From Coprobacillaceae bacterium (GTDB lineage: Bacteria; Bacillota_I; Bacilli_A; Erysipelotrichales; Coprobacillaceae): DNA of 32,000 nucleotides. A program made the position numbers and the translations under genes. Numbering within the stretch: the stretch's first letter is position 1; every line of letters begins with the position of its first letter. The notes beneath the pieces were generated by a model, which was not told where the DNA came from, did not search any database, and worked only from the letters and a program-made list of their open reading frames with translations. The stretch is from the NCBI GenBank assembly GCA_963675515.1, contig OY776328.1, positions 540,001-572,000 of the forward strand. Direction: 5' to 3'. Shown one piece after another: positions 1 through 20,918 of this stretch.

Positions 1-752
1 TCATCTTCGGTCTTGTCCGTCACCTGTTCACAATGACGAGTTACGATGATTTCAATACGGCCATTTATACGATTGTCCAAAAACCACTGGTAAGCCTTGG
101 AGCCAGCCCGATCACCTACATCCTGCTTATCGTTGTCTGCTCGCTGCTGTGGTTCGTGGGAATCCATGGGGGAATGATTGTAATGCCGATCCTAAGCATG
201 CTTTACATGCCGGCATTGCTTGAAAACCTGGCTGCATTTGAAGCCGGGACTCAGCTGCCAAATATCATCACCTATTCGACCTGGTCGCTTATTGCTTCAT
301 TGGGTGGGGCCGGAGGAACATTGGGGCTTTGCATCCTGATGCTGTTCCTGTCGAAATCGGTCCGCTACAAGACACTGGGCAAACTGGCAATCGGTCCGGG
401 CATCTGTGGCATCAATGAGCCGATCACCTTCGGTTATCCGATGATGCTCAATACTGTCATGCTTATCCCGATGGTGGTCACTCCGGTGGTCACATTCCTG
501 ATCAGCTATTTTGCGATGTCGGCCGGTATCGTCCCAAGTCCAAACGGGGTGACTGTCGCCTTGGGAACACCGGTAATCTTCTCGGGACTGATGGCCATCG
601 GCTGGCAGGGAGCAGTGCTGCAGGTGTTCCTTATTGTGATCCAGATGGCGTTCTACTTCCCTTTCTTCAGACTCTCAGACAAGATGGCGTATGATGAGGA
701 ACAGGCCAACGAACAAGTCAAATCAATGGAAGAAAAAGCGGTAAACGCATAA
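1..752 (+). CDS. PTS EIIC subunit, lactose/cellobiose (Lac) family; 3' part only, the gene starts upstream of the window
   Basis: The frame is open from the window edge, with no stop before the Met at 33. The product is a polytopic hydrophobic protein. Its WFVGIHGG and GINEPITFGYP motifs align with VIGIHGT and NINETMTFGLP of the complete EIIC at 7565-8884. The residues before Met33 (IFGLVRHLFT) also align with that paralog. Confidence 0.85.
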   Translation, partial: IFGLVRHLFTMTSYDDFNTAIYTIVQKPLVSLGASPITYILLIVVCSLLWFVGIHGGMIVMPILSMLYMPALLENLAAFEAGTQLPNIITYSTWSLIASLGGAGGTLGLCILMLFLSKSVRYKTLGKLAIGPGICGINEPITFGYPMMLNTVMLIPMVVTPVVTFLISYFAMSAGIVPSPNGVTVALGTPVIFSGLMAIGWQGAVLQVFLIVIQMAFYFPFFRLSDKMAYDEEQANEQVKSMEEKAVNA

Positions 753-815
753 TTATCCATGGAAGAGTGGGATGTTTCCATTCTTCCATGTCAACTTAGA
801 AGTTAGGAGAACTTT

Positions 816-2288: not shown

Positions 2289-2312
2289 GGAAACGGAAAT
2301 ATCAATACTTTT

Positions 2313-2335
2313 GAGAACTCAGGTTCTCTTTTTTG
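2313..2335 (+). terminator. Rho-independent terminator after the sulfatase gene
   Basis: GAGAAC-tcag-GTTCTC perfect 6-bp stem followed by TTTTTTT. Confidence 0.75.
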
Positions 2336-2508
2336 TGCAATTGAACCCTGGACGTTATCAAAAGCAGGCCAACAGGAGGATGGTGACATGTCGCAGCTCA
2401 TCCCGATCTCCGGGGTGTGATTATCCTAATTGAAGTTGGCAATACATTTCGGGAAATTGGAAATAATAAAAAATGATTGTTTTTGAAATCGGTTTCCTGC
2501 GTTTTTTG

Positions 2509-2536
2509 TTTACATTCCCCGGGAAAAAGGTAAAAT
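2509..2536 (+). promoter_or_regulatory. Candidate sigma-A promoter for the shikimate dehydrogenase gene
   Basis: TTTACA (2509-2514), 16-nt spacer, TAAAAT (2531-2536), about 50 nt upstream of the ATG at 2586. Confidence 0.4.
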
Positions 2537-2585
2537 TGATGTCAAAGCAAATTTCATTGAAGATTACAAGCGGGGGAGACTACAG

Positions 2586-3458
2586 ATGGCACAACGAATT
2601 ACCGGATACACTGAATTGATCGGATTGATCGCCTATCCGATCAGGCACTCCAGCTCGCCAAAAATGCATAATGAGGCATTTGCGAAACTGGGGCTTGACT
2701 ACGCCTATCTTGCCTTTGAAGTCGACAACGAGACCCTCGAGGACACCATCAAAGGGTTCAAAGCGATGAAGGTTCGGGGCTGGAATGTATCCATGCCAAA
2801 CAAGACGGAAATCCACCGCTACCTTGATGAACTCACACCGGCGGCAAAGCTGTGCGGTGCTGTGAATACTGTGGTCAATGACAATGGCGTGCTCACCGGA
2901 CATATAACAGATGGGATCGGGTATATGGAAGCCCTGAAAGATGCGGATATCGATGTGATCAACCAGAAGATGACCATCGTAGGAGCCGGGGGAGCGGCAA
3001 CCGCCATCGCCATCCAGGCGGCGCTCGATGGGGTCAGGGAAATATCCATCTTCAACACAAGAGACAAGTTCTGGGCCAGGGGCAAGAAGACGGTCGCTGA
3101 TATTAATAGCTTTACTGATTGTATCGCATCACTCCACGACCTTGAAGATCTTGACGATCTCAAAAAGGAGATCCAATCCAGTTTTCTTTTCACCAATGCG
3201 ACCGGAATGGGTATGGAGCCGTTTGTCGGGAAAACCTATATTCCCGACAAGTCGTTTTTCCGCTCTGACTTGTACGTGACCGACATCGTCTATTCCCCGT
3301 CTGAAACAGCTTTGCTCAAGCTGGCCAAAGAGGCGGGGTGCAGGACCATGAACGGATTTGGGATGATGCTTTTCCAAGGCGCGGCCGCATTCAAATTGTG
3401 GACCGGCCAGGATATGCCGGTTGAGTACATAAAAGAAGTGATGGATATCAGGTATTAG
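2586..3458 (+). CDS. aroE: Shikimate (or quinate/shikimate) dehydrogenase
   Basis: GGGGGAG SD 7 nt upstream. GLIAYPIRHSSSPKMHN substrate-binding block, NVSMPNK motif and GAGGAATAI Rossmann loop. Length of 290 aa is typical of the family. Confidence 0.82.
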   Translation: MAQRITGYTELIGLIAYPIRHSSSPKMHNEAFAKLGLDYAYLAFEVDNETLEDTIKGFKAMKVRGWNVSMPNKTEIHRYLDELTPAAKLCGAVNTVVNDNGVLTGHITDGIGYMEALKDADIDVINQKMTIVGAGGAATAIAIQAALDGVREISIFNTRDKFWARGKKTVADINSFTDCIASLHDLEDLDDLKKEIQSSFLFTNATGMGMEPFVGKTYIPDKSFFRSDLYVTDIVYSPSETALLKLAKEAGCRTMNGFGMMLFQGAAAFKLWTGQDMPVEYIKEVMDIRY

Positions 3459-3486
3459 AATAAATATCGGCATCAGAACATAGATG

Positions 3487-3530
3487 AAATGACCCTGCGA
3501 TTTTGAGTGTGAATTGCAGGGTCATTTTAA
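3487..3530. terminator. Hairpin terminator between the convergent aroE and chromate-transporter genes
   Basis: AAATGACCCTGC ... GCAGGGTCATTT is a 12-bp perfect inverted repeat. T-run on the plus side, weaker on the minus side. Confidence 0.6.
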
Positions 3531-3576
3531 TATGTATTGAAAGGATAAAGTTATCGGTTTGTTGAAATGAGGGACA

Positions 3577-4113
3577 TCAGATGAACATGTAGCCAACCAT
3601 GCCGACCAGCCCGCATGAAAGCATTGTGAGTATCGGCGAAAACTTGAATTTGCCAAGGAGCACCAGTCCCAGGACGACAATGGCGATCCCGAAATAGTTG
3701 ATCCCCTCTTCGAAGGCCATCAGCTTGAAAATCGAGATCCCGGCACTCATGATCAAAGCGACAACCGCCGGGCGCAGGGCTGAAAGGACGCTTTGGATCA
3801 CGCTGAGATTCTTGTAGCGGTAATAGAGGAAACTGAGGATTCCCACAATGATGATTGAAGGAGTCACACAGCCCAGGGTTGCGACCAATGCGCCAGGCAG
3901 ACCGGCAACCTTGGTTCCCACGAATGTCGCCGAGTTGACGGCGATCGGTCCGGGCGTCATTTCGGCCAAGGTGATCAGATCCGAAAACTCGGTCATGGTC
4001 AGCCATTGCAGTTTGGAAACGATTTGTTCCTGGACCAGGGGGATTGCGGCCATGCCGCCCCCGAAGCTGAACGCTCCGATCTGGAAGAAGCTTATGAAAA
4101 GTCTAATCCACAT
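3577..4113 (-). CDS. Chromate transporter (CHR family), short-chain subunit 2
   Basis: GGAGGTGA SD. 178-aa polytopic protein with FQIGAFSFGGGMAAIP and TPGPIAVN motifs. Overlaps the upstream partner by 11 nt. Confidence 0.85.
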   Translation of the reverse strand: MWIRLFISFFQIGAFSFGGGMAAIPLVQEQIVSKLQWLTMTEFSDLITLAEMTPGPIAVNSATFVGTKVAGLPGALVATLGCVTPSIIIVGILSFLYYRYKNLSVIQSVLSALRPAVVALIMSAGISIFKLMAFEEGINYFGIAIVVLGLVLLGKFKFSPILTMLSCGLVGMVGYMFI

Positions 4114-4681
4114 TTCCTTTCACCTCCACTTTTTGTTTAGACATACTGAAGAAGTTGGCGATTATTCCCACTGAAGCGCAGCCCAGGATTATCACGGTGA
4201 CTGAAAGACCCAGGAACAGTTTAAGGCTAAGGCAAACAGCGAGCAGACTTATGATCAAAGGACTTCTGGTTTTCAACAATTTAAGGGATAGGTCGAATAC
4301 CGTATGGAAGATGATCGCCACCACGCCTGATTGCATCGCACGAAGAAACAATGAAATATAATAGTTGCTCCTGAACTGTTCGTAAAAAAGAGATATTATG
4401 GAGATGATGATGATCGGGGGCAAAACTGTCCCGAGTATCGCAAGCAGGGCCCCGGGCAGCTTTCCGATCTTGAAGCCGATCAATATGGCGGCATTGATGG
4501 CGACGGCTCCAGGTGCCGACTGGGCGATGGCGATAAGGTCGAGCATTTCGTTGTCCTCGATCCAGCCAAGTTCCTCCACAAATTTGGCCTTCATCAGCGG
4601 GATGATGACATAACCTCCGCCGAATGTGAATGATGACAGGTAGAAAGTCGAACTGAACAATGTCAGGTATTTATTTTTCAT
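4103..4681 (-). CDS. Chromate transporter (CHR family), short-chain subunit 1
   Basis: GAGGAGG SD. 192-aa polytopic protein with FTFGGGYVIIPLM and SAPGAVAINAA motifs, paralogous to the downstream half. Confidence 0.85.
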   Translation of the reverse strand: MKNKYLTLFSSTFYLSSFTFGGGYVIIPLMKAKFVEELGWIEDNEMLDLIAIAQSAPGAVAINAAILIGFKIGKLPGALLAILGTVLPPIIIISIISLFYEQFRSNYYISLFLRAMQSGVVAIIFHTVFDLSLKLLKTRSPLIISLLAVCLSLKLFLGLSVTVIILGCASVGIIANFFSMSKQKVEVKGNVD

Positions 4682-4779
4682 TTGATGTTCCTCCTCGCTA
4701 TCATTCTAATCCAGATTGATGTATAATAAAAATACATAAAACAAATACAACTTATATTGAAATTGTTATGGAGGTTGAG

Positions 4780-5643
4780 ATGAATATAAACTACTTGCGG
4801 ATTTTCAAAGCTGTTTGTGACGAAGGCGGGGTGACCAAGGCCAGCAAAAAGCTGTATATCGCCCAGCCTTCGGTGTCCCTGGCAATCAAGGAACTTGAAA
4901 AGAATTATGAGGTCAAGCTGTTCGATCGGATCTCGCGCAAGCTTATTTTGACCGCCAAAGGGCAGCAGCTATATGATTATGTGACCGACATCCTGCCGCT
5001 TATTGACGAGATCGATGAGAAGCTCAAGGAAGGCGACCAGGTCGGCGGCAGGCTAAGGATCGGCAGTTCGGTGACTTTCGGGAATTACTATCTTATCGAC
5101 CTTGTCTCCGCTTTGAAAAAGGAATATCCTCAGCTGGAATTCCAGCTGACAATCGACTCTTCATATGCGATTGAGGAGCTGGTCGCAAACAACGGTGTGG
5201 ACCTGGGAATCATTGAAGGGCACAGCCATCTTGAAAACATCCACAGCCGGATCATCCTGGATGACGACCTGGTCTATGTAAAAAGCAGGGATTTCGAGCG
5301 GAAGATCGAAACGTATGATGATCTCAACAACTGCGAGGTGCTGCTTCGCAACCTCGGATCGGCCCATCGCGAGATCTTTGATGGGCTGATGAAAGCCCAC
5401 GACATCAATCCCAAGATAGTGATGGAATCGATCAGCACGAGCGCCCTGATCGAGGGGTGCATCCACGGGCTGGGACTGGCTTTTTTGCCCCACAAGTTTA
5501 TCGAGGACTACCTTGAAAATGGGCTGGTAACTATTAGCGCATTGCCGGTTGTCAAACGGAACTATTTCCTGATCACCCATCAGAACAAATATGTGAGCAA
5601 CAATATGGAGATTTTCATCAGACAATTGGAAAAAATCAGGTGA
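4780..5643 (+). CDS. LysR-family transcriptional regulator, divergent from the chromate-transporter pair
   Basis: N-terminal LysR wHTH (MNINYLRIFKAVCDEGGVTKASKKLYIAQPSVSLAIKELE) plus a substrate-binding-like C-terminal domain. I prefer the ATG at 4780 (GGAGG 5 nt upstream) over the ORF-track start at 4768. Confidence 0.88.
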   Translation: MNINYLRIFKAVCDEGGVTKASKKLYIAQPSVSLAIKELEKNYEVKLFDRISRKLILTAKGQQLYDYVTDILPLIDEIDEKLKEGDQVGGRLRIGSSVTFGNYYLIDLVSALKKEYPQLEFQLTIDSSYAIEELVANNGVDLGIIEGHSHLENIHSRIILDDDLVYVKSRDFERKIETYDDLNNCEVLLRNLGSAHREIFDGLMKAHDINPKIVMESISTSALIEGCIHGLGLAFLPHKFIEDYLENGLVTISALPVVKRNYFLITHQNKYVSNNMEIFIRQLEKIR

Positions 5644-5694
5644 CAATTCCGTTTTGTGTGGTAGAATGTCTTTTATTGTTTAAGAGGTAAGAAT

Positions 5695-7410
5695 ATGGAT
5701 AAAACGAAAATGGAAGAATTCCTGTCTGTCGCCAGGGGTGAAAAGCCAGCTGAGCTGGTGATTGTAAATTGCAGGATTGTCGATGTCTACTTAAAGAGGA
5801 TCGTAACGGGAAATGTCGCCATCCATGACGGGTTGATTGTGGGTATCGGCGATTACCAGGGCGAAAAGACAGTCGATGGAAAAGGTAACTATCTTGCACC
5901 GGGGCTGATCGATTCCCACATCCACCTTGAATCGACGTATCTTGGAGTGGAGCAGGCGGCAGGGTTGATGATGGCTCGGGGGACAACGACGATAATAGCC
6001 GATCCCCACGAGATAGTCAATGTCGCAAACAATGCTGGCATGCAATACATGCTTGACGCCGGGGCGAATACGCCTTTGTCGATCAAGTACATGCTCCCTT
6101 CATGTGTTCCAGCCTGCGCGATCGAGGATCTTGTCACGCCGTTCACTGTGGACGACATGCGCCATTTTGCGGGCCATCCCGACGTCATCGGTCTTGGGGA
6201 AATGATGGATTATCCAGGACTGGTTGGCGGTGATGAAGGGGTGTTGGACAAGATTGTCTTTGCCCATGAAAACTCCCTGATTATCGACGGGCATGCCCCG
6301 ATGCTAGGTGATGGCACCCTGGATGGCTACATCGGCTCATCGATCAGGACCGACCATGAGTGCACGAGTGTCGATGAGCTTAATGAACGAATTGCCCGGG
6401 GCATGTATGTTATGCTGCGCAACGGCTCGGCAGCCCGGGATCTTGAAAACCTCCTGCCAGGAGTAAATGAGACCACATCCCGTTATTGCCTGCTTTGTAG
6501 CGATGACAAGGAGGTCGAACACATGATCAACCAGGGCCATATTGACCAAAGCCTGCGCATCTGCGTCAACCATGGCATCGACCCGCTGACGGCACTGCAA
6601 ATGGCAACCATCAATGCGGCGCAGTGCTATCGCCTTGATGATCGCGGGGCGATCGCTCCGGGAAAACGGGCGGATCTGGTTTTCTTCAAGGATCTCAAGG
6701 ATTTCAAGGTCATCCGGGTCATGATTTCCGGCCAGACTGTTTTTGATAACGGAAAAATCCAGGTGGAAATCAAACCGATTGGCTATGGAAGTGTCGCCAA
6801 CTCGATGCATGTCAGTGATTTTTCAATCGAGAGGTTGAAAATCAAGCTCAAAGATAAAAAGGTCATCGCAATGGAAACCCTGGCCCATTCCCTGCTGACA
6901 AGGAAGATCGAAGTGGTTCCTGATCGTGACGAACATGGATGGTTCAAGTTTTCAAATGACGGCCTCAACAAGATCGCGGTGATCGACCGCCATAAGGGTA
7001 GCGGTGCCATCGGGCTGGGGCTGATCAGGGGATTTGGCATCACTAAGGGAGCATTGGCGCTGACCATCGCCCATGATTCGCATCACCTGATCGCCATCGG
7101 TGCCAATGACCGCGACATGGCGGTTGCGGTGAACCGGCTTAATGAATGCCAAGGCGGAATTGTCGTCGCAAACGACAATCAGGTGATCGCAGAACTCCAA
7201 ATGCCCATTGCCGGGTTGATGAGCGATCTGCAACCAGATCAGGTCAAAGACAGGCTCAAGGACATCCATGAAAAGTGCCACAAGGTGCTGGGTATCCAGG
7301 AGGACGAACCAATTGTGAAACTCTCGTTCATGGCCTTGCCGGTCATCCCGGAGATAAAAATGACCCCGAAGGGACTTTTCGATGTTACCCGATTCGAATT
7401 TGTGGACTAG
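5695..7410 (+). CDS. ade: Adenine deaminase (amidohydrolase superfamily)
   Basis: AGAGG SD. GLIDSHIHLEST metal-binding HxH block and IADPHEI. 571-aa two-domain length is typical of adenine deaminase. Confidence 0.88.
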   Translation: MDKTKMEEFLSVARGEKPAELVIVNCRIVDVYLKRIVTGNVAIHDGLIVGIGDYQGEKTVDGKGNYLAPGLIDSHIHLESTYLGVEQAAGLMMARGTTTIIADPHEIVNVANNAGMQYMLDAGANTPLSIKYMLPSCVPACAIEDLVTPFTVDDMRHFAGHPDVIGLGEMMDYPGLVGGDEGVLDKIVFAHENSLIIDGHAPMLGDGTLDGYIGSSIRTDHECTSVDELNERIARGMYVMLRNGSAARDLENLLPGVNETTSRYCLLCSDDKEVEHMINQGHIDQSLRICVNHGIDPLTALQMATINAAQCYRLDDRGAIAPGKRADLVFFKDLKDFKVIRVMISGQTVFDNGKIQVEIKPIGYGSVANSMHVSDFSIERLKIKLKDKKVIAMETLAHSLLTRKIEVVPDRDEHGWFKFSNDGLNKIAVIDRHKGSGAIGLGLIRGFGITKGALALTIAHDSHHLIAIGANDRDMAVAVNRLNECQGGIVVANDNQVIAELQMPIAGLMSDLQPDQVKDRLKDIHEKCHKVLGIQEDEPIVKLSFMALPVIPEIKMTPKGLFDVTRFEFVD

Positions 7411-7435
7411 CTTGCGCTGGTCCTTTTTTATTTTT
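7404..7435 (+). terminator. Rho-independent terminator after ade
   Basis: GGACTAGC-ttgc-GCTGGTCC 8-bp stem (one G-U pair) that contains the TAG stop, followed by TTTTTTATTTTT. Confidence 0.75.
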
Positions 7436-7512
7436 CGGCAGGAATTTTCATTATTTTAGCCCAAATCGAAGACATGATGGCATCCTGTTGCCAAAGATGT
7501 CAGAACCGCTTC

Positions 7513-7525
7513 TGAAAGCGCATCC
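7513..7525 (+). promoter_or_regulatory. Candidate cre (CcpA) site upstream of the beta-glucoside EIIC gene
   Basis: TGAAAGCGCATCC matches the core of the cre consensus TGNAANCGNWNNC. It lies 40 nt upstream of the EIIC start. Confidence 0.35.
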
Positions 7526-7564
7526 GAACTGATAAGATGATTACAGTTGAAAGGAGAGTTTACT

Positions 7565-8884
7565 ATGGGTGATTATTTAACTGAGAAGTTATTAGTGGTT
7601 GCTTCCAAGATGTCGTCGCAACGGCACATGGTCGCAATCAAAAACGCATTTACGGCATTGTTGCCAATCATCATTACCGGGGCCTTCTGTGTCCTGTTTG
7701 CCAATGTTGTCACTTCGACGACAACTACAGGTATTTCGTTGGCCAAACTGCCAGGGATGGCGTGGCTGTCGAATTTCACTGACATGTTCAACGCGGCATA
7801 CTATGCCTCATTGAACTTCCTGACAGTGCTAGCGGTCATTTTGATCGCAATCGAATTGGGGAAAGAGTTGAAACACAAGGAAACAATCGTGCCGATCGTG
7901 GCATTGTCTTCCTATATCAGCTTGTGCGACACTTTCTTGAAAACAAGCGTGGAAGGTCTGGCTGACCCGGTGACTATCGTCAACGTATTGCCAAGAGCCT
8001 TCACCAATGCCCAAGGTCTGTTTTTGGGGATGATCACGGCTTTGATCGCCACTGAAATCTATGTGAAAATCGTTGACAGTCGCAAGCTGGAAATCAAGAT
8101 GCCTGAAACGGTTCCGACGAACGTTTCCCATTCATTCAATATCCTGTTCCCATCAGTGATCACGATCCTGCTGATTTCCGGATTCGGACTGCTTTTCAAG
8201 ACAGTGTTTGGAATGACTCTTTACGATGCGATCGGGACAATGATCCAGACACCGCTTCGCGGGGTTCTTACCGGTCTTCCGGGTTACCTGCTTATCTTTG
8301 CCTTGTCTTGTGTTTTCTGGGTTATCGGGATCCACGGTACCCAGGTGCTAAAACCGGTTTACCAGGCGACAATGCTTGAGGCGGTGTTGGCCAACACCGA
8401 ACTTGTGAACGCCGGGCAGGCGCCAAAATACATCCTTAATGAAGCCTTCATTTCGGTGTTCACGACAATGTCGGGAGCGGGGATCACAATCGGACTTATC
8501 ATCGCGATTCTGGTCGCTTCAAAACGTGATGACTTCAAAGCCATCGCCAAACTTTCTATAGCGCCTGGTATGTTCAATATCAATGAAACCATGACATTCG
8601 GTTTGCCAATAGTGCTAAATCCGCTGTTCATGATTCCGTTTATCTTGGCACCGATTCTTACCGCATCATTCGCTTATTTCATGACCGTTATCGGATTTTG
8701 CGGCTATATGGTCTATGCGGTCCCTTGGACAACGCCGCCGCTGCTTATCGCCTGGCTTGCATCAGGGGGATCCATGGGAGCTGTAGTCACCCAGGCGATC
8801 TGTATCGTCATTTCCACTTTGGTATATCTGCCATTCGTGTTCGCATCAAATAAAACTATCAATCAAGAACCAGTCAGTGAATAA
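7565..8884 (+). CDS. PTS EIIC subunit, lactose/cellobiose family (beta-glucoside/cellobiose type)
   Basis: AAAGGAGAG SD before the ATG at 7565; the ORF-track start at 7547 is a TTG inside the SD region. About 10 TM segments, with VIGIHGT and NINETMTFGLP motifs. Confidence 0.9.
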   Translation: MGDYLTEKLLVVASKMSSQRHMVAIKNAFTALLPIIITGAFCVLFANVVTSTTTTGISLAKLPGMAWLSNFTDMFNAAYYASLNFLTVLAVILIAIELGKELKHKETIVPIVALSSYISLCDTFLKTSVEGLADPVTIVNVLPRAFTNAQGLFLGMITALIATEIYVKIVDSRKLEIKMPETVPTNVSHSFNILFPSVITILLISGFGLLFKTVFGMTLYDAIGTMIQTPLRGVLTGLPGYLLIFALSCVFWVIGIHGTQVLKPVYQATMLEAVLANTELVNAGQAPKYILNEAFISVFTTMSGAGITIGLIIAILVASKRDDFKAIAKLSIAPGMFNINETMTFGLPIVLNPLFMIPFILAPILTASFAYFMTVIGFCGYMVYAVPWTTPPLLIAWLASGGSMGAVVTQAICIVISTLVYLPFVFASNKTINQEPVSE

Positions 8885-12647: not shown

Positions 12648-13874
12648 ATGTTTAAGGAAAACTTGAAAAAATACGCCCGCCTGCTGGTGGAGAGCGGGCT
12701 GAATGTCCAAGAAGGGCAGGTTGTGGCGATAATGGCCACAATCGAAGCGGCGGAACTGGTCCGTGAAGTCACCAAGGCGGCATATGCAAAAAAAGCCAAG
12801 GAAGTGCGGGTGCTTTACGATGACGAATTCGTGACTCGCCAGAAATACCTGAATTCGCCCCTTGAGGTGTTCGAGAATGTGCCAAAATACATCAGTGAAT
12901 TCCGTAACGAGCTGGTCAACCAGGATTCGTGCATCCTGTTTTTGCGCGGTGACGATCCGGAGCTGCTCAAGGGATGCGACCGTGAAAAGGTTGCAACTTA
13001 CACTAAAAACATGATGCTGGCGCTAAAACCGTTCAACGACAAGCGGGACAACATGGAGCTTTCATGGTGTATCGGGGCAGTCCCGTCAGCTGCCTGGGCC
13101 AACAAGGTCTACCCGGACATGGCGACCCATGAGGCCATCGAAGCCCTGTGGCAGGCCATCTTCAAGGTGACACACGTGACCAGTGAAGATCCGGTGGCGT
13201 TCTATGCGCAAAACAAGATCAATTTCGAAAACCGGGTGAAATATCTCAATGACCTGAAGATCGAGTCCCTGCACTACAAAAATTCGCTGGGAACCGATCT
13301 GGTTGTCGAACTGCCTGAAAAGTATCTTTTCGCCGGCGGGGGCAGCTATCTTTCCAACGGGGTGTACAACTTCCCGAATATCCCGACTGAAGAGGTTTTC
13401 ACCGTCAACAAGAAACACGGAGTCAATGGGATTGTCTACTCTTCGATGCCGCTCAACTATCATGGCAATCTGATCGAGGACTTTTCGTTCCGGTTTGAAA
13501 ACGGGAAAATAATCGAAGCCAAGGCGCGCGTGAATGAGGATGTCCTCAACGACATGATCTCACTTGATGAAGGGGCAAGCTATCTAGGCGAGGTCGCCCT
13601 GGTTCCATATGACAGCCCGATAAGCAATCTCAAAACGCTGTTTTATATGACCCTGCTTGATGAGAACGCTTCTTGCCATTTTGCCATCGGCAATTCCTAT
13701 ATCGAGTGCCTGGATGGGGGACTTGAGATGAGCAAGGAAGAAAAAAAGGTGCAGGATGTCAATGAATCCCTGACCCATGTCGATTTCATGGTGGGGACGG
13801 GAGATCTGGAGATTATCGCCACGACAAGAGACAATAAAAAAGTGCCGATTTTCAAAAACGGCAACTTCGTTTAG
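12648..13874 (+). CDS. Aminopeptidase, M29 (PepS/AmpS) family
   Basis: GGAGG SD. 408 aa with the N-terminal LKKYARLLVESGLNVQEGQ block and the C-terminal HFAIGNSY...HVDFM metal-binding blocks characteristic of thermophilic-type M29 aminopeptidases. Confidence 0.85.
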   Translation: MFKENLKKYARLLVESGLNVQEGQVVAIMATIEAAELVREVTKAAYAKKAKEVRVLYDDEFVTRQKYLNSPLEVFENVPKYISEFRNELVNQDSCILFLRGDDPELLKGCDREKVATYTKNMMLALKPFNDKRDNMELSWCIGAVPSAAWANKVYPDMATHEAIEALWQAIFKVTHVTSEDPVAFYAQNKINFENRVKYLNDLKIESLHYKNSLGTDLVVELPEKYLFAGGGSYLSNGVYNFPNIPTEEVFTVNKKHGVNGIVYSSMPLNYHGNLIEDFSFRFENGKIIEAKARVNEDVLNDMISLDEGASYLGEVALVPYDSPISNLKTLFYMTLLDENASCHFAIGNSYIECLDGGLEMSKEEKKVQDVNESLTHVDFMVGTGDLEIIATTRDNKKVPIFKNGNFV

Positions 13875-13902
13875 AAAACACAGGCCTAAAAGCCTGTGTT
13901 TT
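13875..13902. terminator. Bidirectional terminator shared by the aminopeptidase and TPR genes
   Basis: AAAACACAGGC-ctaaaa-GCCTGTGTTTT perfect 11-bp stem. The stop codon of the minus-strand TPR gene (13886-13888) sits in the loop, and its last 5 codons form one arm. Confidence 0.7.
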
Positions 13903-15586
13903 CCTGTTGGGATGAATGATTGTCGAGGATTTTCTCGATTTCCTGATACCGGGGGTCGCCGGCCTGGTAATACAGATAGGCCAGCTCCTGGTATATGTTC
14001 ATTATGAAATTCTGGAAATGGGGGTCGATCTTGCCAAGCTCCTGGGCGTTGGAAAGCGACATCAGACAGAAATCAATGGCTTTTTCACTGTCCTGGCGCG
14101 CCTGGAAGTATTTGGTGAACAGCTTGTATGTCTTGGCTTTTTCCTCATAGAGGTATTCGACCTGGGCGATCTGGCTTTTTTCGAGCAACGATTCAAGTAT
14201 CATCAGGTTGTCGTATACCTCGTCGAGGTCTTTGAGGGCCAGGTGGTTCTGGGCGATCAGCCGGTAAATCGGGGCGTACTGGATCTTGTCGACATAGATC
14301 TGGTCGTAGCAGTTTAGTGCGGCTTTGAGATTTGTGAGCGACTGGCCAAATTCATGGAGGTAGTAGTCGGTCTCGCCGATGATAAGATAACAGCTGCCAA
14401 TCAGGAAGTAATAACGTTCATCAGTAACCTTTATCCTGGAAAAGTGTTCCAGGGCGATCTGTCCGTAATCCTTGGCCTGGTTGTAATCCTTGAGACCTAG
14501 GTGGCAAACCGCCAGCACCCGATAGACCACGGCGATGTCGTACACGATCAGGTCTTCGTCGCTTTGGTTCTTAGCGATGTTCTGGAATGATTTGAGGGCC
14601 TTGTGGGCGAACTCGACAGCCTCGACGTAACGGTCGAGATGGCTGCAGGTTTCGCTGACCGTCAGATAGATGGGACCCAGGGCATAGGCGTCCTCGTCGT
14701 TTGTTTTCAGCAGGTAGAAAAGCGACTTGTTGAGCGAGTCGAGCAACTGGGTGTTCTGGTTCATGTTTCTTTGAAGCGTTGCCAGGACGAGATAGCTGTC
14801 AGCCAGATTTGATATGCCTCCGGCATCGTCGGGACTGAGCTTGTACAGTTCAAGGCGGGCCTGGATGGCTGCCTGGGCCGATTCGAGGGCCGATTCATAT
14901 TGGTTCAAACTGGTGTGCAACCGGGTTACCTGCTGGTGGTAAATCGCCAGGTAGAGCAGGTAATTGCGGCTTTTCTTGTTTTCAAACAGCGACAAATAGC
15001 GCCAAGATTCTTTGAGTGACTCTTCGACCTGGTCGAACTTTTGCATGTTAAGCAGGTGGTTTGTGTGAATGAGGTTGTTGAACCCGATTTCGTGGATCTG
15101 CACCGGTTTGAGATATCCGGTATCGATCTTGTTGAGACTTTGCAGGTACATCTCGTACTCATGGTGCATCTTTTTCTGGTGGTAGTAATTGATCAGGTTG
15201 ATCAGGGAATTGACATACATCGGGATGAAGATATCGTCATCAACCGACAGTTCCTGGTAATCATCGACTCCCCCGCGCAGATATTCTTCAGTGTTCTTGG
15301 AAAAATCAAGCTTGACCGAAAGGCTGCCAAGAAGGCTGTTGATGTAGGCCCGGTCCTGCAGGCTGACTTCGCTTAAATCCAGATTGACCAAAGCCTCGAA
15401 GGCTTCCTCGTATGATTCAAAGGCGTTAAGCAACGAGGCGTATTTGATGGAGAAATAAACCTGTCCTTCCCTGGTCAGGCGGTGAGACAAAAGCAAGTCC
15501 TCGTACAATATTATCAGTTCACCTGCGGTCTGCTCATCCAAAGGGCGGTTTTCCAATTCTTCTATTTGTTTCACTATATCTTCCAT
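13886..15586 (-). CDS. Hypothetical all-TPR-like repeat protein (566 aa), function unknown
   Basis: AGAGAGG SD. Roughly a dozen helical repeats of about 40 aa with the TPR-like Y..A......AL pattern (YEEAFEALVNL, YESALESAQAAIQ, YVEAVEFAHKALKSF, YNQAKDYGQIALEHF, FGQSLTNLKAALNCY, SEKAIDFCLMSLSNA). No HTH, TM segment, signal peptide or catalytic motif seen. Confidence 0.8.
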   Translation of the reverse strand: MEDIVKQIEELENRPLDEQTAGELIILYEDLLLSHRLTREGQVYFSIKYASLLNAFESYEEAFEALVNLDLSEVSLQDRAYINSLLGSLSVKLDFSKNTEEYLRGGVDDYQELSVDDDIFIPMYVNSLINLINYYHQKKMHHEYEMYLQSLNKIDTGYLKPVQIHEIGFNNLIHTNHLLNMQKFDQVEESLKESWRYLSLFENKKSRNYLLYLAIYHQQVTRLHTSLNQYESALESAQAAIQARLELYKLSPDDAGGISNLADSYLVLATLQRNMNQNTQLLDSLNKSLFYLLKTNDEDAYALGPIYLTVSETCSHLDRYVEAVEFAHKALKSFQNIAKNQSDEDLIVYDIAVVYRVLAVCHLGLKDYNQAKDYGQIALEHFSRIKVTDERYYFLIGSCYLIIGETDYYLHEFGQSLTNLKAALNCYDQIYVDKIQYAPIYRLIAQNHLALKDLDEVYDNLMILESLLEKSQIAQVEYLYEEKAKTYKLFTKYFQARQDSEKAIDFCLMSLSNAQELGKIDPHFQNFIMNIYQELAYLYYQAGDPRYQEIEKILDNHSSQQENTGF

Positions 15587-15606
15587 AGGGCACCTCTCTT
15601 TATTTC

Positions 15607-15635
15607 ATTTTATCATCTTATTGAAAGCGTTACAA
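15607..15635 (-). promoter_or_regulatory. Candidate sigma-A promoter of the TPR gene
   Basis: On the minus strand: TTGTAA (15635-15630), 17-nt spacer, TAAAAT (15612-15607). It would give a short leader containing the SD. Confidence 0.45.
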
Positions 15636-15737
15636 ACAAATATCCCGGCAATCGGGAGCGCTACCAAGTTTTTGTGTAACTTATCAATGACGGAAGTTGA
15701 CTTTTGGCTAACAAAAACCAGAATCGGCTCTTAGGTG

Positions 15738-15766
15738 TTGAAAATTACCTCTTGAGCAAGTAAAAT
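15738..15766 (+). promoter_or_regulatory. Candidate sigma-A promoter of the three-gene HTH operon
   Basis: TTGAAA (15738-15743), exact 17-nt spacer, TAAAAT (15761-15766). Confidence 0.5.
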
Positions 15767-15808
15767 TAAGGTGAATAAGCGAATCGGTTTAAAATGAAGA
15801 GGTCTATT

Positions 15809-16933
15809 ATGAATGAATTTGTTTCGTTATTGAACGACTATATTGAAAACTCGGGAATATCGCAAAGCCAGATTTCGCGGGAAGTGGATATCGGCCGGAC
15901 CAAACTCAACAAATGCCTTAACGGCAAACGGAATCTGACATATCAGGAATTGGAGAAGATATGCAACTATCTTGGCCTTTCCAATTATCAAGAAAGCCTC
16001 CTTAAAGAAGCCTATGCCAACCGTGATCTTACGAGGATGCAACTGGCTAATTTCAAGGAGCTGGAAAACTTGTTCAGGAATATCTGCGATGTCAATAAGA
16101 TTGACCGCAATCAGCTGGTGATCCACCCCGTAAACAGGATGGCGTTCACCCACAGCCATTACTTTGGCCGCCTTAATGTGATAACGATGATCAAGAAGAT
16201 CGTCCGTTCCCATTATGACCAGCAATCCAAGGTTGATCTGGTCATGAATCTGCCACTCTATGACAACCTGCTGCGCCAGTTCTTTATCGAGATACTGTGC
16301 AACTTCAATTCCAATTTCCAGATAAACCATCTTGTACCGGTCAATCTCGACGACAGTCTGGTAAATGAGAATCTCAATGTCCTCAACGTCCTCAATCAGG
16401 TGTTGCCTCTGGCGATGTTGGGCCAGTACCGCTACAATTGCCTTTATTTCGATGCCTATCTGCTTAAAAACGAGTTCAATATCTACCCGTATTTTATCAT
16501 TGTCAACGACACCGCCATGTTTGTTTCCAATGACCTGAAAAACATGCGGATCGAGACCGACATCGAGGCTGTGCGCTACTATATGAAAGTCATCGAATTG
16601 CAGAAACTCTCGTCCAAACCGCTGGTCACCCTGACAAGCGATGTGCCCGAGGGAATCTATGATTTTGTCTTCAGCGATGATGCGAAACTCATGGAAAAGT
16701 ATTCGGCCAGGAAAATATATTCGATCAGCGAACTCGATAATCATTTCTGCGAGAAATTCAAAAGGGCTCGAACCGGCGTCAATGATGATGGAAACATCTC
16801 CGTGCTGGTCAGGGATGACATGATTGTAATCAAGCCAGCCGTTGATCGTAGCGATTGCTTAATAATTGAAAACCGGACGTTAATCAAAAACGTCAAGGAT
16901 TACGTCAGGGCCAATATTCCCAATAATTTTTGA
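15809..16933 (+). CDS. HTH (XRE/Cro-like) protein with an uncharacterised C-terminal domain, paralog 1
   Basis: GAGG 6 nt upstream of the ATG at 15809; the ORF-track ATG at 15794 lacks an SD and is the alternative. The N-terminal SGISQSQISREVDIGRTKLNKCLNGKRNLT is a classical HTH. The C-terminal blocks are shared with the next two genes. Confidence 0.8.
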   Translation: MNEFVSLLNDYIENSGISQSQISREVDIGRTKLNKCLNGKRNLTYQELEKICNYLGLSNYQESLLKEAYANRDLTRMQLANFKELENLFRNICDVNKIDRNQLVIHPVNRMAFTHSHYFGRLNVITMIKKIVRSHYDQQSKVDLVMNLPLYDNLLRQFFIEILCNFNSNFQINHLVPVNLDDSLVNENLNVLNVLNQVLPLAMLGQYRYNCLYFDAYLLKNEFNIYPYFIIVNDTAMFVSNDLKNMRIETDIEAVRYYMKVIELQKLSSKPLVTLTSDVPEGIYDFVFSDDAKLMEKYSARKIYSISELDNHFCEKFKRARTGVNDDGNISVLVRDDMIVIKPAVDRSDCLIIENRTLIKNVKDYVRANIPNNF

Positions 16934-16953
16934 CCCTGAGGAAAGGAGTAACC

Positions 16954-17880
16954 ATGTTTGGAGAAACATTAAAAACGATAATCGATGACAGCGGCATTTC
17001 GCTATCCAGGATATCCCGGGCGAGTGGAATATCGCGGTCGATGCTCTACAAGGTTATCAAGGATGAAAGCCAGCTTTCTAACGAGAAATTCACTCAGTTG
17101 ATCGAAGCCGCTCTGTTTGGACCTGGTCAGATAAACGAACTGATGGACGCCTATCTTTCCAACTGCACTGGAAACTGTGATGGAAGTGGTCTTATCCGGG
17201 CCTTGAATTTTATTGAGAATCTTCAAAGGAACGAGTCGCGCAAAGTAGTGGAGCCAGTCGAGCTGGTCAATTCAGCCGGATATACAATGTTGTCTGATCA
17301 AAAAAAGATCGCCAACACGATCAGCCAGGCATTGTCCAACTATAAGCGGGAATTGCTGATACTCAACCAGGAAAAATCGCGGATCGAGAAGCATATCCCC
17401 GAGTCGGGCAAGAACATCATCGTCATGAAAAACATCTCCGACTTGTCGCGGAAGGTCACCAATCTCAATGATGGCCTGCTGGCATGCCTGCGCAACCCGG
17501 ATATATATTTCTGCTATACTACGGTGCCTACGCTAAACATCTCGATCTATGACAACTATCTCCTGGTTGATGACATACTGTATATGTACAGCTGCGACCT
17601 GACGATTATGGCATACACAAGCAACCCCAAGCGGATCAGCTTTTTCAAAAAGATATTCTTCGAGCGGCTGGAGAATTCGAGCAGGTATTTCCAGGTAGAG
17701 CCGCTGTTCAAAAGCTATCAGGAAGTTCTCAAGGTATCTCCAAATCAGAGCATAATTTTCAAGGACAACCATTATTACATCAAAAACAGAAACAAGGCAT
17801 TGATCCTGGACAAGATGCTTGAACAGGATCTAAGAGATTATTTCACCAGAGGAGCCCACAATGTCGAAATTCACCAGTAA
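16954..17880 (+). CDS. HTH (XRE/Cro-like) protein with an uncharacterised C-terminal domain, paralog 2
   Basis: GAAAGGAG SD before the ATG at 16954; the ORF-track start at 16930 is a TTG overlapping the upstream stop. HTH is SGISLSRISRASGISRSMLYKVIKDESQLS. Starts 20 nt after paralog 1. Confidence 0.8.
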   Translation: MFGETLKTIIDDSGISLSRISRASGISRSMLYKVIKDESQLSNEKFTQLIEAALFGPGQINELMDAYLSNCTGNCDGSGLIRALNFIENLQRNESRKVVEPVELVNSAGYTMLSDQKKIANTISQALSNYKRELLILNQEKSRIEKHIPESGKNIIVMKNISDLSRKVTNLNDGLLACLRNPDIYFCYTTVPTLNISIYDNYLLVDDILYMYSCDLTIMAYTSNPKRISFFKKIFFERLENSSRYFQVEPLFKSYQEVLKVSPNQSIIFKDNHYYIKNRNKALILDKMLEQDLRDYFTRGAHNVEIHQ

Positions 17881-19303
17881 ACTGCAGGAGTTGATCGAGA
17901 AGTACGATATCCCCCCTTCAAAACTGGCCCGGGCCCTGGGCATCGACAAGGATGACCTGACGCAGGTATATGACGAGTCAATCGCCCTGACCAGGGATAA
18001 CTACTCGATGCTTGTAAATACAATGGACCTCAATTTCATTGAAGCCCGGGAGCTTGACCAGCTGTTCAATATCTATCTTTTTGGCGAAGACGAATACAAC
18101 TTCAAGACGAGAATAAAGGAATTTCTCGAACAGATATCCTTCAAGATAAGCTGGGATCTTGAAAGCGGATATTTTTGCGAGAATGCCAGTCTTTACAAGG
18201 ATGTCTATCAGGATGGCTTCTATCAATATGACAGCCAGATGTCGCTGATTCTTGCAATCAAGAGGGTTGTCAACGCCTCGCTGTGCAACGAGGCCAAGAC
18301 CAAGATCCGCCTTGTCTACAATTTCGACAACGAGTTCTTGCTTGGGTATTTCTACGAGATATTTTCAAGCTATCATGTCAATCTGGAAATCACCCAGCTT
18401 ACCACTTTTAACGGATTGCACAACGGCAAGTTCGATCTCAATATCCTTTCATATCTGATTTCCCTGATCCTGGCATCCAATCTCAATTATAATTGTCACT
18501 ACAACAACGATTACCAGAAACTGGTGGCGGGTGATTTTAGCAACTATATGATCGTCAATGAAAAGATGTTCATTTTCGACGACCAGCTAAGCCGGGGAAT
18601 GCTTATCTTCGATGCCGGGCAGGTCGACGCCTTCACCAGGAAATTCGACCAGTCGATCGGGCTTTTCACACCGGTGGCATACCGCTGCGACTCGATCGAC
18701 AGCTTCAATGAAATCTACAGCCAGGTGAATCAGGAGATGGTCTATTACTCGATCGAACCGGGGGTCTACCTGAACAATTTTCTGACCAAGGAAATGCTTG
18801 TGAAACACTACAACTACGACCCGGAAGACACTCAAAGGATCACCGACAAGATGCTTGAGGCATTGGGAAAAAAGAAAAAACAGCGTGTCTACAAGACGGT
18901 GACCACGATCGACGGTCTGAAGGATTTTGTCGTCAATGGCATAAACAATTCCTTCCCGCAGTTTGGCGATAAATGTTACAGCCTCCAGGAAAGAAGGGAA
19001 ATCATGGAGAAAATCATCGCCGGAGTCAAAGACGATACATATCAGCTAAACATCATCAACACCAGGAGTCTTATGCTGCCCCAGTCGATCGTTGTCGTGG
19101 CTTCGCATCAATCCGGCCTGTTTTTCACCCTGGTCCGCAATTATGAAAACGAGAACCAGAACATCTCATTCTATTTCAATGACAAGTTTTTAGGGAAGCT
19201 GTTCTGTGATTTCATCGACGGCCTCAAAGATGACGGAATTGCGTACTCCAAAAAGGATACGCTGCTCACGCTGACCCAAATGATGAACGGTTACTTGAAC
19301 TGA
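17861..19303 (+). CDS. HTH (XRE/Cro-like) protein with an uncharacterised, extended C-terminal domain, paralog 3
   Basis: AGAGGAG SD 6 nt upstream. Overlaps paralog 2 by 20 nt. HTH is IPPSKLARALGIDKDDLTQVYDESIALT. Core blocks (NLNYNCHYN, NYMIVNEKMFIFDD) are shared with paralog 1 (YRYNCLYF, YFIIVNDTAMFVSND). Confidence 0.8.
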   Translation: MSKFTSKLQELIEKYDIPPSKLARALGIDKDDLTQVYDESIALTRDNYSMLVNTMDLNFIEARELDQLFNIYLFGEDEYNFKTRIKEFLEQISFKISWDLESGYFCENASLYKDVYQDGFYQYDSQMSLILAIKRVVNASLCNEAKTKIRLVYNFDNEFLLGYFYEIFSSYHVNLEITQLTTFNGLHNGKFDLNILSYLISLILASNLNYNCHYNNDYQKLVAGDFSNYMIVNEKMFIFDDQLSRGMLIFDAGQVDAFTRKFDQSIGLFTPVAYRCDSIDSFNEIYSQVNQEMVYYSIEPGVYLNNFLTKEMLVKHYNYDPEDTQRITDKMLEALGKKKKQRVYKTVTTIDGLKDFVVNGINNSFPQFGDKCYSLQERREIMEKIIAGVKDDTYQLNIINTRSLMLPQSIVVVASHQSGLFFTLVRNYENENQNISFYFNDKFLGKLFCDFIDGLKDDGIAYSKKDTLLTLTQMMNGYLN

Positions 19304-19596
19304 CCGATTCAAATTGATGCGAATCAATGTGACAATTGCCTGTGCGCTATTTTGGTCTAAATGTTGTCACACCTACAGTGGCATATTGCAATGTGGAGCT
19401 TATTAGGCTAGAATGGAATCAGGTAATACGACATGGGGAATAATAATAAAGTCGTATTGCTCAAATTTTGTTGGGGAATCATCTAAGCTCGGGAAAGTTT
19501 TTATATGTGGCGTCGATCAAGGTTAATGGGGATTTCCTTTGACCGGCGGAAACGATTTATTCATAATGTTCAAAGACTTAGGTCTAATCGTTCGAG

Positions 19597-19625
19597 AGAC
19601 AGTTAATTTATTAGCTGTCTTTTTC
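19597..19625 (+). terminator. Plus-strand rho-independent terminator with no annotated gene directly upstream
   Basis: AGACAGtTAAT-tt-ATTAgCTGTCT hairpin followed by TTTTcGTT. It lies about 300 nt after the stop of paralog 3. Confidence 0.6.
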
Positions 19626-19630
19626 GTTGC

Positions 19631-19658
19631 GAAAAAAAGAAGTCTTCGCAAAAGACTC
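19631..19658 (-). terminator. Rho-independent terminator of the hydrolase gene
   Basis: Minus strand reads AGTCTT-ttgcg-AAGACT followed by TCTTTTTTT, immediately after the TAG stop. Confidence 0.6.
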
Positions 19659-20918
19659 CTATTGATTGGATAATTGTCTAGCAATCCATGACCACGAATC
19701 CTCGCCGGTCAGATCGTCGGTTGCCTCATTGTTATCGAAATGGATCCATGACCAGTGTCCATTGTACTTGTGCGGTCCGCCATTGTGGTCCCTGTACCTG
19801 CCGGAAGTGTCGAACACGGAATCGGTAGTGGCGACAGCCAGGGAAGTGGCCCCGGCTTTTTTAAGGCGCTGTATTATCGGCGCTTCATTCAACAAGGGAT
19901 CGACGATTGGATCGTCATTTGAATAAATGAAGTACAATGGCTGATCCTTCAACCGGGCGATATCATCGTTGGTCATCCAGGTGTTTTTCAAGGCGGCGCA
20001 GATGGCCACCCCGGCTTTGTAGTGACCGGGATAGGTCTTCATCATTTCCAATACCATGTATCCACCATTGGAGCAGCCGGTCAGGACGACTTTTTTAGCC
20101 CCGTATTTATTCTTGCAATGGTCGATTAGCTCCTTGAGGCTACTGGTGTAGACGCTTTTGCCATCTTTCGTGTACAAGCCGCTGCCATCATCCATCCACA
20201 TGGTCGGACATTGGGGAACGAGAATCAAGGCATTGTTGACTGCGCTTTGGAAATCCGGACCGGCCAGTGCCGCAGCCTTGTTGGACAGCAACGGTATGAA
20301 AACGTCTGATCCAATTGTGCAACCTTCCCCCATGCCGTGGAGCCATACGACCATTGAGTCCGACCTGGTCTCCGGTTCATAAATGACATACTCATATTCT
20401 TTGCCCGATTCTGTTTGGAAACTTGAGGCATTGAACATGTCCGCTGATGTTGTGAATCCGGTGGCCTGAACCGCTATTTCCAGGGATGTGATTCTTTCAC
20501 CGGATGATTTGACCGATGCCGCCGGCTCAAGAAAGAATTCCAGGAAATAGGGATTGGACCAGGTGTTTTTCTGCGTCTCCATAGAAAAAAGCAGGGGCGA
20601 ACCCTCTTTTGGGGAGACTTCAAGATCCACTGCGACATGATTCGAACAACCGTCGACCATGTTGCCCGAACTGTCACAAAGATGGATGTCGAGCACCTTG
20701 CGCGGGAATTTTCTGACCACCACCGGGAAGCTGGCATCATTCCAGTCGGTCGCCTGCCTGGTTTCGATTACGGTGATGTCTGACGCCTTGATGCTGTCGA
20801 TTGGTCTTTCAAGTTTCAAAACGGCCTTGCCGACCCCCGCGCCCCAGTCATGGCCGGTGACGAAGTAGCTGTAGGTACCGGTGATTGTTGAGTTCGCTTT
20901 GTTGTTCGTTTTTGTCAT
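19659..20918 (-). CDS. Alpha/beta-hydrolase-fold serine hydrolase (putative esterase/peptidase) with an extra N-terminal domain
   Basis: AAAAAGGAG SD. C-terminal half has VVWLHGMGEG and the nucleophile elbow G-x-S-x-G (GCSNGG), then SNDDPIV and a late His. The N-terminal 180 aa or so is beta-rich and unassigned. No signal peptide. Confidence 0.7.
   Translation of the reverse strand: MTKTNNKANSTITGTYSYFVTGHDWGAGVGKAVLKLERPIDSIKASDITVIETRQATDWNDASFPVVVRKFPRKVLDIHLCDSSGNMVDGCSNHVAVDLEVSPKEGSPLLFSMETQKNTWSNPYFLEFFLEPAASVKSSGERITSLEIAVQATGFTTSADMFNASSFQTESGKEYEYVIYEPETRSDSMVVWLHGMGEGCTIGSDVFIPLLSNKAAALAGPDFQSAVNNALILVPQCPTMWMDDGSGLYTKDGKSVYTSSLKELIDHCKNKYGAKKVVLTGCSNGGYMVLEMMKTYPGHYKAGVAICAALKNTWMTNDDIARLKDQPLYFIYSNDDPIVDPLLNEAPIIQRLKKAGATSLAVATTDSVFDTSGRYRDHNGGPHKYNGHWSWIHFDNNEATDDLTGEDSWSWIARQLSNQ

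Follow-up and report, generated by a model that had tools for sequence, protein, structure and literature searches.

What is the role of a small gene cluster that lies amid housekeeping genes in the chromosome of a Coprobacillaceae bacterium, and in which a gene for a tetratricopeptide repeat (TPR) protein stands back to back with three tightly packed genes for helix-turn-helix (HTH) proteins? The cluster is within a 32,000-nucleotide stretch of contig OY776328.1 (positions 540,001 to 572,000; assembly GCA_963675515.1), which we call the window, and we refer to the three HTH genes, in the order of their operon, as HTH1, HTH2, and HTH3. A first-pass annotation of the window had assigned the proteins to no known family and had suggested either a peptide receptor of the RNPP type (Rap, NprR, PlcR, PrgX, AimR) whose parts are split over separate proteins, or a defense or abortive-infection sensor, and had seen a hint of separate ancestry in the GC content. 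We propose that the cluster is probably an ordinary but uncharacterized locus for the control of transcription, chromosomal and vertically inherited, in a single clade of Erysipelotrichaceae. Its HTH proteins are predicted to combine a DNA-binding domain with a non-catalytic module of the phospholipase D (PLD) fold, and a candidate small RNA gene, overlooked earlier, follows HTH3.

Word-indexed searches gave the false impression that the HTH proteins are orphans: they returned four clusters each for HTH3 and HTH1, and an alignment-based search added three more. An exhaustive HMMER search with a profile built from HTH1 and HTH3 gave 847 representatives at E ≤ 1e-3, of which 230 also passed E ≤ 1e-10; proteins of 470-500 amino acids make up the majority. 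The representatives are clusters at 50% identity, and we take the size of the family as at least 847. These profile matches place the HTH proteins in a large, unnamed, and uncharacterized family of Firmicutes. The statement that their family is unknown was correct in that nothing characterized was found beyond HTH and TPR families, but these proteins are not orphans. The only name that the source databases give to family members is "helix-turn-helix transcriptional regulator." Eight loci are from named genomes (Mediterraneibacter, Blautia, Lachnospiraceae, Fusicatenibacter, Ruminococcus, and other Clostridia), and one cluster is named Eubacterium sp. Among 60 family members, Pfam matched HTH families only (24-28 of the 60 at E ≤ 0.01), and no Pfam family matched the C-terminal 400 residues. 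Searches of Pfam, NCBIfam, PADLOC, and PHROGs with the four proteins of the locus found nothing beyond HTH families, one TPR_12 match, and the PADLOC matches of HTH1 that are discussed below. Sequence and profile searches of the PDB with the HTH proteins gave matches in the HTH or none at all (SinR was a weak match of this kind), and literature searches found no characterized XRE-PLD regulator. In one locus, from a Blautia metagenome-assembled genome (L010; we number the loci compared here with an L), a 128-amino-acid fragment of the family at 27-413 (E = 4e-24) is directly 5' of a 397-amino-acid ORF of the family at 436-1629, which could be one gene with a frameshift or two genes in tandem.

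Are the three HTH proteins really paralogs, as had been claimed? For HTH1 and HTH3 this is clear from BLAST (27% identity over about 250 amino acids, E = 1e-8), and HTH1 matches the family profile over profile positions 1-285 with E = 5e-58. For HTH2, the BLAST similarity to the other two is confined to the HTH, but it does match the family profile (E = 1.5e-15): the match is strong in the HTH and linker, and weak but colinear at a central motif (YYY...PYYiit...lS.dl). HTH2 is the shortest and the most divergent of the three. It is intact in five lineages, with a ratio of nonsynonymous to synonymous substitution rates (dN/dS) of about 0.12-0.15. The HTH itself is of the XRE/Cro-C1 type, as identified by the Pfam matches of HTH1 above the cutoff (HTH_19 at 36.4 bits with a cutoff of 30.2, HTH_31 at 29.6 with 27, HTH_26 at 29.1 with 22, and HTH_3 at 28.3 with 23), by the Pfam matches of the family, and by a five-helix bundle in the predicted structure of HTH3. 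The Pfam matches of HTH2 and HTH3 on their own are below the cutoff (HTH_3 at 18.0 versus 23, and HTH_60 at 22.5 versus 24.1).

The domain that follows the HTH had not been recognized, and structure prediction with a Foldseek search had been suggested for it. We predicted the structure of HTH3 with AlphaFold2 from the 60-sequence alignment and obtained a confident model, with a predicted local distance difference test score (pLDDT) of 86.9 and a predicted TM-score (pTM) of 0.84. In the model, an XRE HTH of five helices (residues 3-74) is followed by a long helix (76-94) and two alpha/beta domains (about 115-270 and 290-480). When this model was compared to the PDB with Foldseek, the matches were almost exclusively to the PLD superfamily (PLD3, the phosphatidylserine synthase PssA, PLD1/2, polyphosphate kinase PPK, and PLD from Streptomyces), with E values of 4e-6 to 1e-3 and probabilities of 0.96-1.0 for many independent structures, and they included the archaeal regulator TrmBL2. 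Matches in BFVD were viral PLD proteins. At the level of domains, the model thus has the PLD-like beta-alpha fold. The catalytic motif of PLD enzymes, HxKxxxxD (HKD), is absent by regular expression from 190 of the 192 sequences that we fetched, most of which are family members; no histidine, lysine, or aspartate is invariant in the 60-sequence alignment, and neither the HTH proteins nor the 60 family members have a PLDc match in Pfam. According to the model, a helical linker connects the XRE HTH of HTH3 to two PLD-like domains that lack HKD. From the profile alignment, HTH1 appears to have, past its XRE HTH and linker, a single PLD-like domain and then a short region at the C-terminus, and HTH1 and HTH2 would each retain roughly one PLD-like domain.

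The PLD superfamily (PLD3, PssA, PLD1/2, Nuc, and the C-terminal domains of PPK) shares with these proteins the two-lobed tandem beta-alpha fold, and its members are the best structural matches. In contrast to the enzymes, the HTH family lacks the HKD motif and is fused to a DNA-binding domain, and the identity is just 8-10%. A closer parallel in architecture is TrmB and TrmBL2, in which an N-terminal DNA-binding HTH is combined with a long helix and with an alpha/beta domain that is PLD-like and non-catalytic; the effector domain of TrmB belongs to the PLD clan. In the TrmB family this domain serves effector binding or oligomerization. TrmBL2 (5bpd and 5bpi) is a direct Foldseek match of the HTH3 model, with E = 4e-4 and a TM-score normalized by the target (TMt) of 0.37-0.40. 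There are also differences: the HTH in our proteins is XRE/Cro rather than winged, HTH3 has two PLD-like domains, and the Firmicutes proteins are about 480 amino acids long. The TrmB models PF01978 and PF11495 are not among the Pfam matches of the HTH proteins or of the 60 family members, and the likeness is one of fold and architecture only. In the HTH family, then, an XRE HTH would be joined to a tandem PLD-like module without catalytic function, and by its predicted architecture the family would be a counterpart of TrmB. SinR and SlrR of B. subtilis are another comparison for the trio, as paralogous XRE HTH regulators that are adjacent and could form heteromers. They differ in that their C-terminal domains are unrelated, whereas here there are three paralogs of 308-480 amino acids and no SinI-like small antagonist was seen.

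The other protein of the locus, of 566 amino acids, had been described as TPR-like throughout. One match to the Pfam repeat family TPR_12 (E = 6.4e-9, 36.3 bits versus a cutoff of 30.1, residues 350-406) is the only TPR match above the Pfam threshold, and no family could be assigned to the remainder of the protein. We consider it to be a cytoplasmic TPR-like helical repeat protein that is specific to this clade. It has no matches in NCBIfam or PADLOC, and searches of the PDB with the sequence and with a profile of four orthologs gave only a kinesin-light-chain-like bacterial protein (E = 0.25) and an unrelated TPR protein (E = 1.5). Among the four proteins it is the best conserved: its orthologs are 82, 79, and 48% identical, with dN/dS of 0.03-0.09.

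The block was described as self-contained, and this is borne out by its conservation across the five lineages that we compared, in which the proteins are as little as 38-48% identical to those of the window. On the contigs of all close relatives of HTH1 and HTH3, the block has the same neighbors: a gene for an M29 aminopeptidase upstream, and genes for an alpha/beta-hydrolase, an AraC regulator, and the rml genes downstream. One ortholog cluster bears the name "Erysipelotrichaceae bacterium." A pair at greater distance, P0012 and P0013, came out of the exhaustive profile search; both are in one genome, with the same order of the four genes, the same synteny, and the 20-nucleotide overlap of HTH2 and HTH3. 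Within this conserved setting, the rate of evolution of the four genes is two to three times that of their neighbors. The flanking M29 aminopeptidase is 93% identical to the window in L001 and 78% in L017, while the corresponding values are 81 and 48% for the TPR protein, 65 and 38% for HTH1, 67 and 39% for HTH2, and 75 and 44% for HTH3. Where the synonymous rate dS can be estimated, dN/dS is 0.03-0.15 in the module and 0.04-0.05 in the flanks; dS is saturated (above 1), so these ratios are of limited use.

Separate ancestry had been suggested from a lower GC content, and it does not hold up. The GC content of the TPR gene is 49.2% and does not differ from that of the flanks. For the HTH genes it is 44-46%, as compared to a mean of 49.2% for genes of the window. 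At third codon positions, the GC content (GC3) of TPR, HTH1, HTH2, and HTH3 is 0.683, 0.613, 0.615, and 0.663, and we count these values as inside the distribution for the window (0.644 ± 0.034). Because GC3 is within that distribution, the dip in the HTH genes comes from amino acid composition and not from codon usage. With its native GC3 and stable synteny, the block is native, vertically inherited, under purifying selection, and fast evolving, and its genes are functional.

The most conserved DNA of the locus is not in any of the four genes. The 290 base pairs from the stop codon of HTH3 to a terminator at 19597-19628 are more conserved than all of them, though dS is above 1. For the RNA gene described below, nucleotide conservation greatly exceeds that of the genes that flank it. 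In order, this region contains a conserved block (CCTGTGCG), a palindrome, a promoter, and a folded region of about 205 nucleotides that includes the terminator; we placed the 5' end of the RNA (19421) from the promoter. Across the five lineages, 13 of 57 base pairs have compensatory changes, as compared to 4.6 ± 1.8 in shuffled alignments (none of 500 reached 13) and at most five if the register is slid. Similarly, 93.7% of the alignment cells are paired, versus 36-49% in a slid register. In L017 the stem of the first hairpin is almost wholly rewritten, yet the pairing is retained. A profile search found exactly one copy per locus, always directly 3' of HTH3, including in L004 and L017, whose downstream genes are altered. 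Among the unpaired nucleotides, the conserved motifs are GUUGGGG, GCUCGGGAA, AUGGGGAUU (in a loop), CAUAAU, and AUCGUUC. No Rfam family matched the window at the gathering threshold. In a permissive Rfam search, the sole overlap with this gene was a chance-level match to mir-2780 (15 bits versus a gathering threshold of 95) at the terminator, on the opposite strand. In scans of JGI metagenomes, neither the RNA pattern nor relatives of the TPR protein turned up. On the strength of the covariation, we regard this region as a well-supported candidate for a conserved structured RNA gene, and as a candidate small RNA.

The palindrome, TGTCAC-N7-GTGGCA, is a candidate operator for this gene. The window has no second exact match to it. 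It is found at the same place in L001, L002, L017, and L018, where L017 has a perfect TGTCAC-N7-GTGACA, and with one or two mismatches in L003 and L004. The sequence GCGCTA occurs in both of the conserved non-coding regions of the locus (15652-15666, AGCGCTACCAA, and 19339-19355, CCTGTGCGCTAT) and is not conserved in L017; it is probably there by chance.

We also considered whether a short hydrophobic ORF of 17 codons (19433-19486, MGNNNKVVLLKFCWGII), which overlaps the first hairpin of the RNA and looks like an SHP or XIP peptide, might be a peptide gene. We rejected it: there are frame-compensating indels in the window, L004 lacks the ATG and carries a TAA in frame, and the ATG is lost in L017. 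Since the reading frame is not conserved in L004 and L017 and the pairing of the hairpin is kept, the region is constrained as RNA rather than as a peptide. None of the small ORFs in 15580-15810 or 19290-19660 are conserved.

If the locus is a transcriptional control locus, it might work as follows. HTH1, HTH2, and HTH3 would be regulators of the one-component type that bind DNA via the XRE HTH, and the PLD-like module would be used for ligand sensing, for dimerization or oligomerization, or for both, as in regulators of the TrmB type. Because PLD-fold proteins work as two-lobed units, HTH1 and HTH2, with a single domain each, are probably partners of one another or of HTH3. The resulting unit would have two HTHs, as befits a palindromic operator. 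The regulators would likely act on the 207-bp divergent control region (for autoregulation and for control of the TPR gene) and on the palindrome at the promoter of the RNA. Most simply, the TPR protein would be a protein-protein partner or a modulator of the regulators. This would provide a fold and a plausible role for a large, unnamed family of regulators from Firmicutes gut bacteria. The family appears to be a bacterial XRE-HTH counterpart of the TrmB-type regulators on an inactivated PLD scaffold. We know of almost no regulatory RNAs that have been described from Erysipelotrichaceae, and the small RNA is a new candidate for this group. The practical impact will be modest until a ligand, a regulon, or a target of the RNA is found.

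Several observations weigh against the view that these genes form one control locus, or against the fold on which it rests. The distant members of the HTH family (L005-L007 and L009-L016) are single genes, with neighbors such as pyruvate:ferredoxin oxidoreductase, a choline-binding protein, DUF1275, isochorismatase, Sir2, a major facilitator superfamily transporter, or a surface protein. Nine distant loci of the family (seven of them distinct) have heterogeneous contexts and no TPR protein as a neighbor. Adjacency of the TPR and RNA genes alone is no proof of a functional link, because the whole neighborhood is syntenic. No motif of the divergent control region recurs at the promoter of the RNA, and no site related to the palindrome was found in the TPR/HTH control region. 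For the fold, the TM-scores from Foldseek are low (0.2-0.46), and the PLD assignment is at the level of domains and comes from one predicted model. A search for internal duplication found no sequence similarity between the two halves of HTH3. The AlphaFold model of HTH1, from an 8-sequence alignment, had a pLDDT of 43.7 and was not used, and the domains of HTH1 are from the profile alignment alone.

A rival explanation is that the three HTH genes are an ordinary operon of paralogs and that the TPR and RNA genes are independent of them and adjacent through regional synteny alone. The flanking genes (GH1, Mem_trans, M29, abhydrolase, AraC, and rml) are also in conserved order, the distant family members have neither a TPR protein nearby nor such an RNA, and no operator motif is shared. 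However, the pair of divergent promoters in a short common control region is conserved, the RNA is still attached to HTH3 in L004 and L017, where the gene content changes right past its terminator, and all four genes have the same raised rate of evolution relative to the flanks. We consider this explanation possible, on balance somewhat doubtful. A test of whether TPR and HTH homologs occur together across genomes had been suggested, and among the loci that we compared they do so only within this clade; the association of the TPR and HTH genes, like the triplication, appears to be specific to it. A TPR-containing gene is near a distant family member in one context only (L005-L007). It encodes a Ser/Thr kinase in an operon with FHA and FtsK/SpoIIIE genes, and the TPR protein of the window is not similar to its TPR region. 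At the opposite extreme, the whole locus (the trio of HTH-PLD genes together with those for the TPR protein and the RNA) could be one regulatory switch of a new kind. In such a switch, a degenerate, non-catalytic PLD pocket would sense a ligand that bears phosphate (a nucleotide, polyphosphate, a lipid head group, or the end of a nucleic acid), paralogs with one and two domains would form heteromers, the TPR protein would modulate them, and the structured RNA would be driven via the TGTCAC-N7-GTGRCA operator. We think that so complete a scheme is unlikely.

The two readings of the first-pass annotation fared less well, and the tempting picture of a split RNPP system or a defense island can be set aside. 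A quorum-sensing system like RNPP, in which a separate TPR protein binds a peptide and controls the three HTH proteins, would account for the side-by-side genes of a TPR protein and XRE HTH proteins in a Firmicute, as the RNPP receptors are XRE-type HTH regulators of Firmicutes, and for a short ORF (MGNNNKVVLLKFCWGII) downstream of HTH3. But the HTH proteins already have a large C-terminal module of their own, the tandem PLD-like alpha/beta fold, and none of them has a TPR match in Pfam. As described above, the ORF is broken in L004, lacks its ATG in L017, and is constrained as an RNA hairpin, so there is no conserved propeptide gene. Neither sequence nor profile searches with the TPR protein matched RNPP structures or families (Rap, NprR, PlcR, PrgX, or AimR), and we found no signal peptide and no oligopeptide permease (Opp) genes at the locus. 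Membership in RNPP fails on the three features that we tested (a fused TPR, an adjacent propeptide gene, and similarity of the TPR protein in sequence or profile), and we consider a split system of this kind to be very improbable.

PLD-fold nucleases and TPR sensors are known from defense systems, and together with the rapid evolution of the four genes and the lineage-specific triplication, this might point to HTH-PLD paralogs and a TPR sensor that act against phages or mobile elements. In PADLOC, there were no matches for the TPR protein, HTH2, or HTH3, and HTH1 matched generic HTH or controller models at its N-terminus (residues 10-76), along with a marginal match to HEC-01A (E = 0.0047, residues 211-287). 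The HKD motif is absent, and Pfam and NCBIfam found no NTPase or effector domain in the four proteins. Scans of viral contigs for the TPR and HTH families were empty, and BLAST against phages and plasmids gave nothing beyond one generic TPR match. Also, the composition is native and the place in the chromosome is stable. The defense and mobile-element readings are without any support, and we consider a role in conflict to be improbable.

The features of the locus are listed in Table 1. The four ORFs, the two near-consensus promoters of the divergent region, and the Shine-Dalgarno (SD) sequences of HTH2 and HTH3 were all as the first-pass annotation had placed them, apart from the start of HTH1, and so were the flanking hairpins.

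Table 1. Features of the TPR/HTH locus (positions within the 32,000-nucleotide window).
Feature	Position	Strand	Basis and remarks
TPR gene	13886-15586	-	ORF, 566 amino acids
HTH1	15809-16933 (ORF 15794-16933; conserved start 15809)	+	374 amino acids
HTH2	16954-17880	+	ORF, 308 amino acids; SD GAAAGGAG
HTH3	17861-19303	+	ORF, 480 amino acids; 20-nucleotide overlap with HTH2
Putative promoter of TPR gene, TTGTAA-17-TAAAAT with TG extension	15635-15607	-	Consensus scan; hexamers conserved in L001, L003, and L017
Putative promoter of HTH1-HTH2-HTH3 operon, TTGAAA-17-TAAAAT	15738-15766	+	Consensus scan; -35 and -10 invariant across orthologous loci
Bidirectional terminator-like hairpin, junction of M29 aminopeptidase and TPR genes	13874-13903	both	Folding
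Candidate structured small RNA, about 205 nucleotides	19421-19628	+	Four hairpins and intrinsic terminator (19597-19628)
Putative promoter of RNA, TTGCAA-17-TAGAAT	19386-19414	+	Consensus scan; hexamers conserved and spacer variable in five lineages
Palindrome TGTCAC-N7-GTGGCA, candidate operator	19365-19383		Abuts -35 of RNA promoter
Terminator of convergent alpha/beta-hydrolase gene	19638-19660	-	Boundary mark; outside module

Promoter-like matches are frequent in this region (19 in the consensus scan, versus 9.7 ± 3.0 expected). The two promoters of the divergent region are credible because their hexamer pairs are invariant in the orthologous loci while the sequence of the spacers varies. 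HTH1 and HTH2 are separated by a 20-nucleotide gap that carries GAAAGGAG, and the SD at the overlap of HTH2 and HTH3 is AGAGGAG. One sigma-70-type promoter and the tight or overlapping junctions point to a common transcript of HTH1, HTH2, and HTH3 and to translational coupling between them.

At the start of HTH1, there is an in-frame ATG at 15794, five codons 5' of the conserved start; it is present in L001 and not in L003. An SD-like GAAGAGG speaks for the start at 15809.

All three hairpins at the boundaries are more stable than shuffled controls by a wide margin. The hairpin at 13874-13903 folds with -19.1 kcal/mol on the plus strand and -21.8 kcal/mol on the minus strand (z = -5.3 and -7.2) and covers the last codons of the TPR gene. 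On the other side, the hairpin at 19597-19628(+) has -15 kcal/mol and the one at 19638-19660(-) has -10 kcal/mol. The former, earlier listed as one of two convergent terminators at the end of the block, closes the RNA gene and is not directly after HTH3. In two loci the gene content switches directly past it: two EstA_Ig_like genes are inserted in L017 (10858-13699), and two small genes replace the hydrolase in L004 (4578-5290). The terminator of the RNA therefore marks a recombination boundary of the module.

In L005 (positions 1-7800, from a gut-metagenome contig; also L006 and L007), the distant family member P0053 is divergent from an operon that encodes an FHA protein, the TPR-repeat Ser/Thr kinase, and zinc-ribbon proteins. 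The operon also encodes a 1517-amino-acid protein with FHA and a double FtsK/SpoIIIE ATPase that resembles EssC, and it may be a type VII-like secretion cluster that is controlled by P0053. Finally, the TPR protein of the window has six or seven C-terminal residues that its orthologs lack; these are encoded by 13886-13906 and reach into the bidirectional hairpin.

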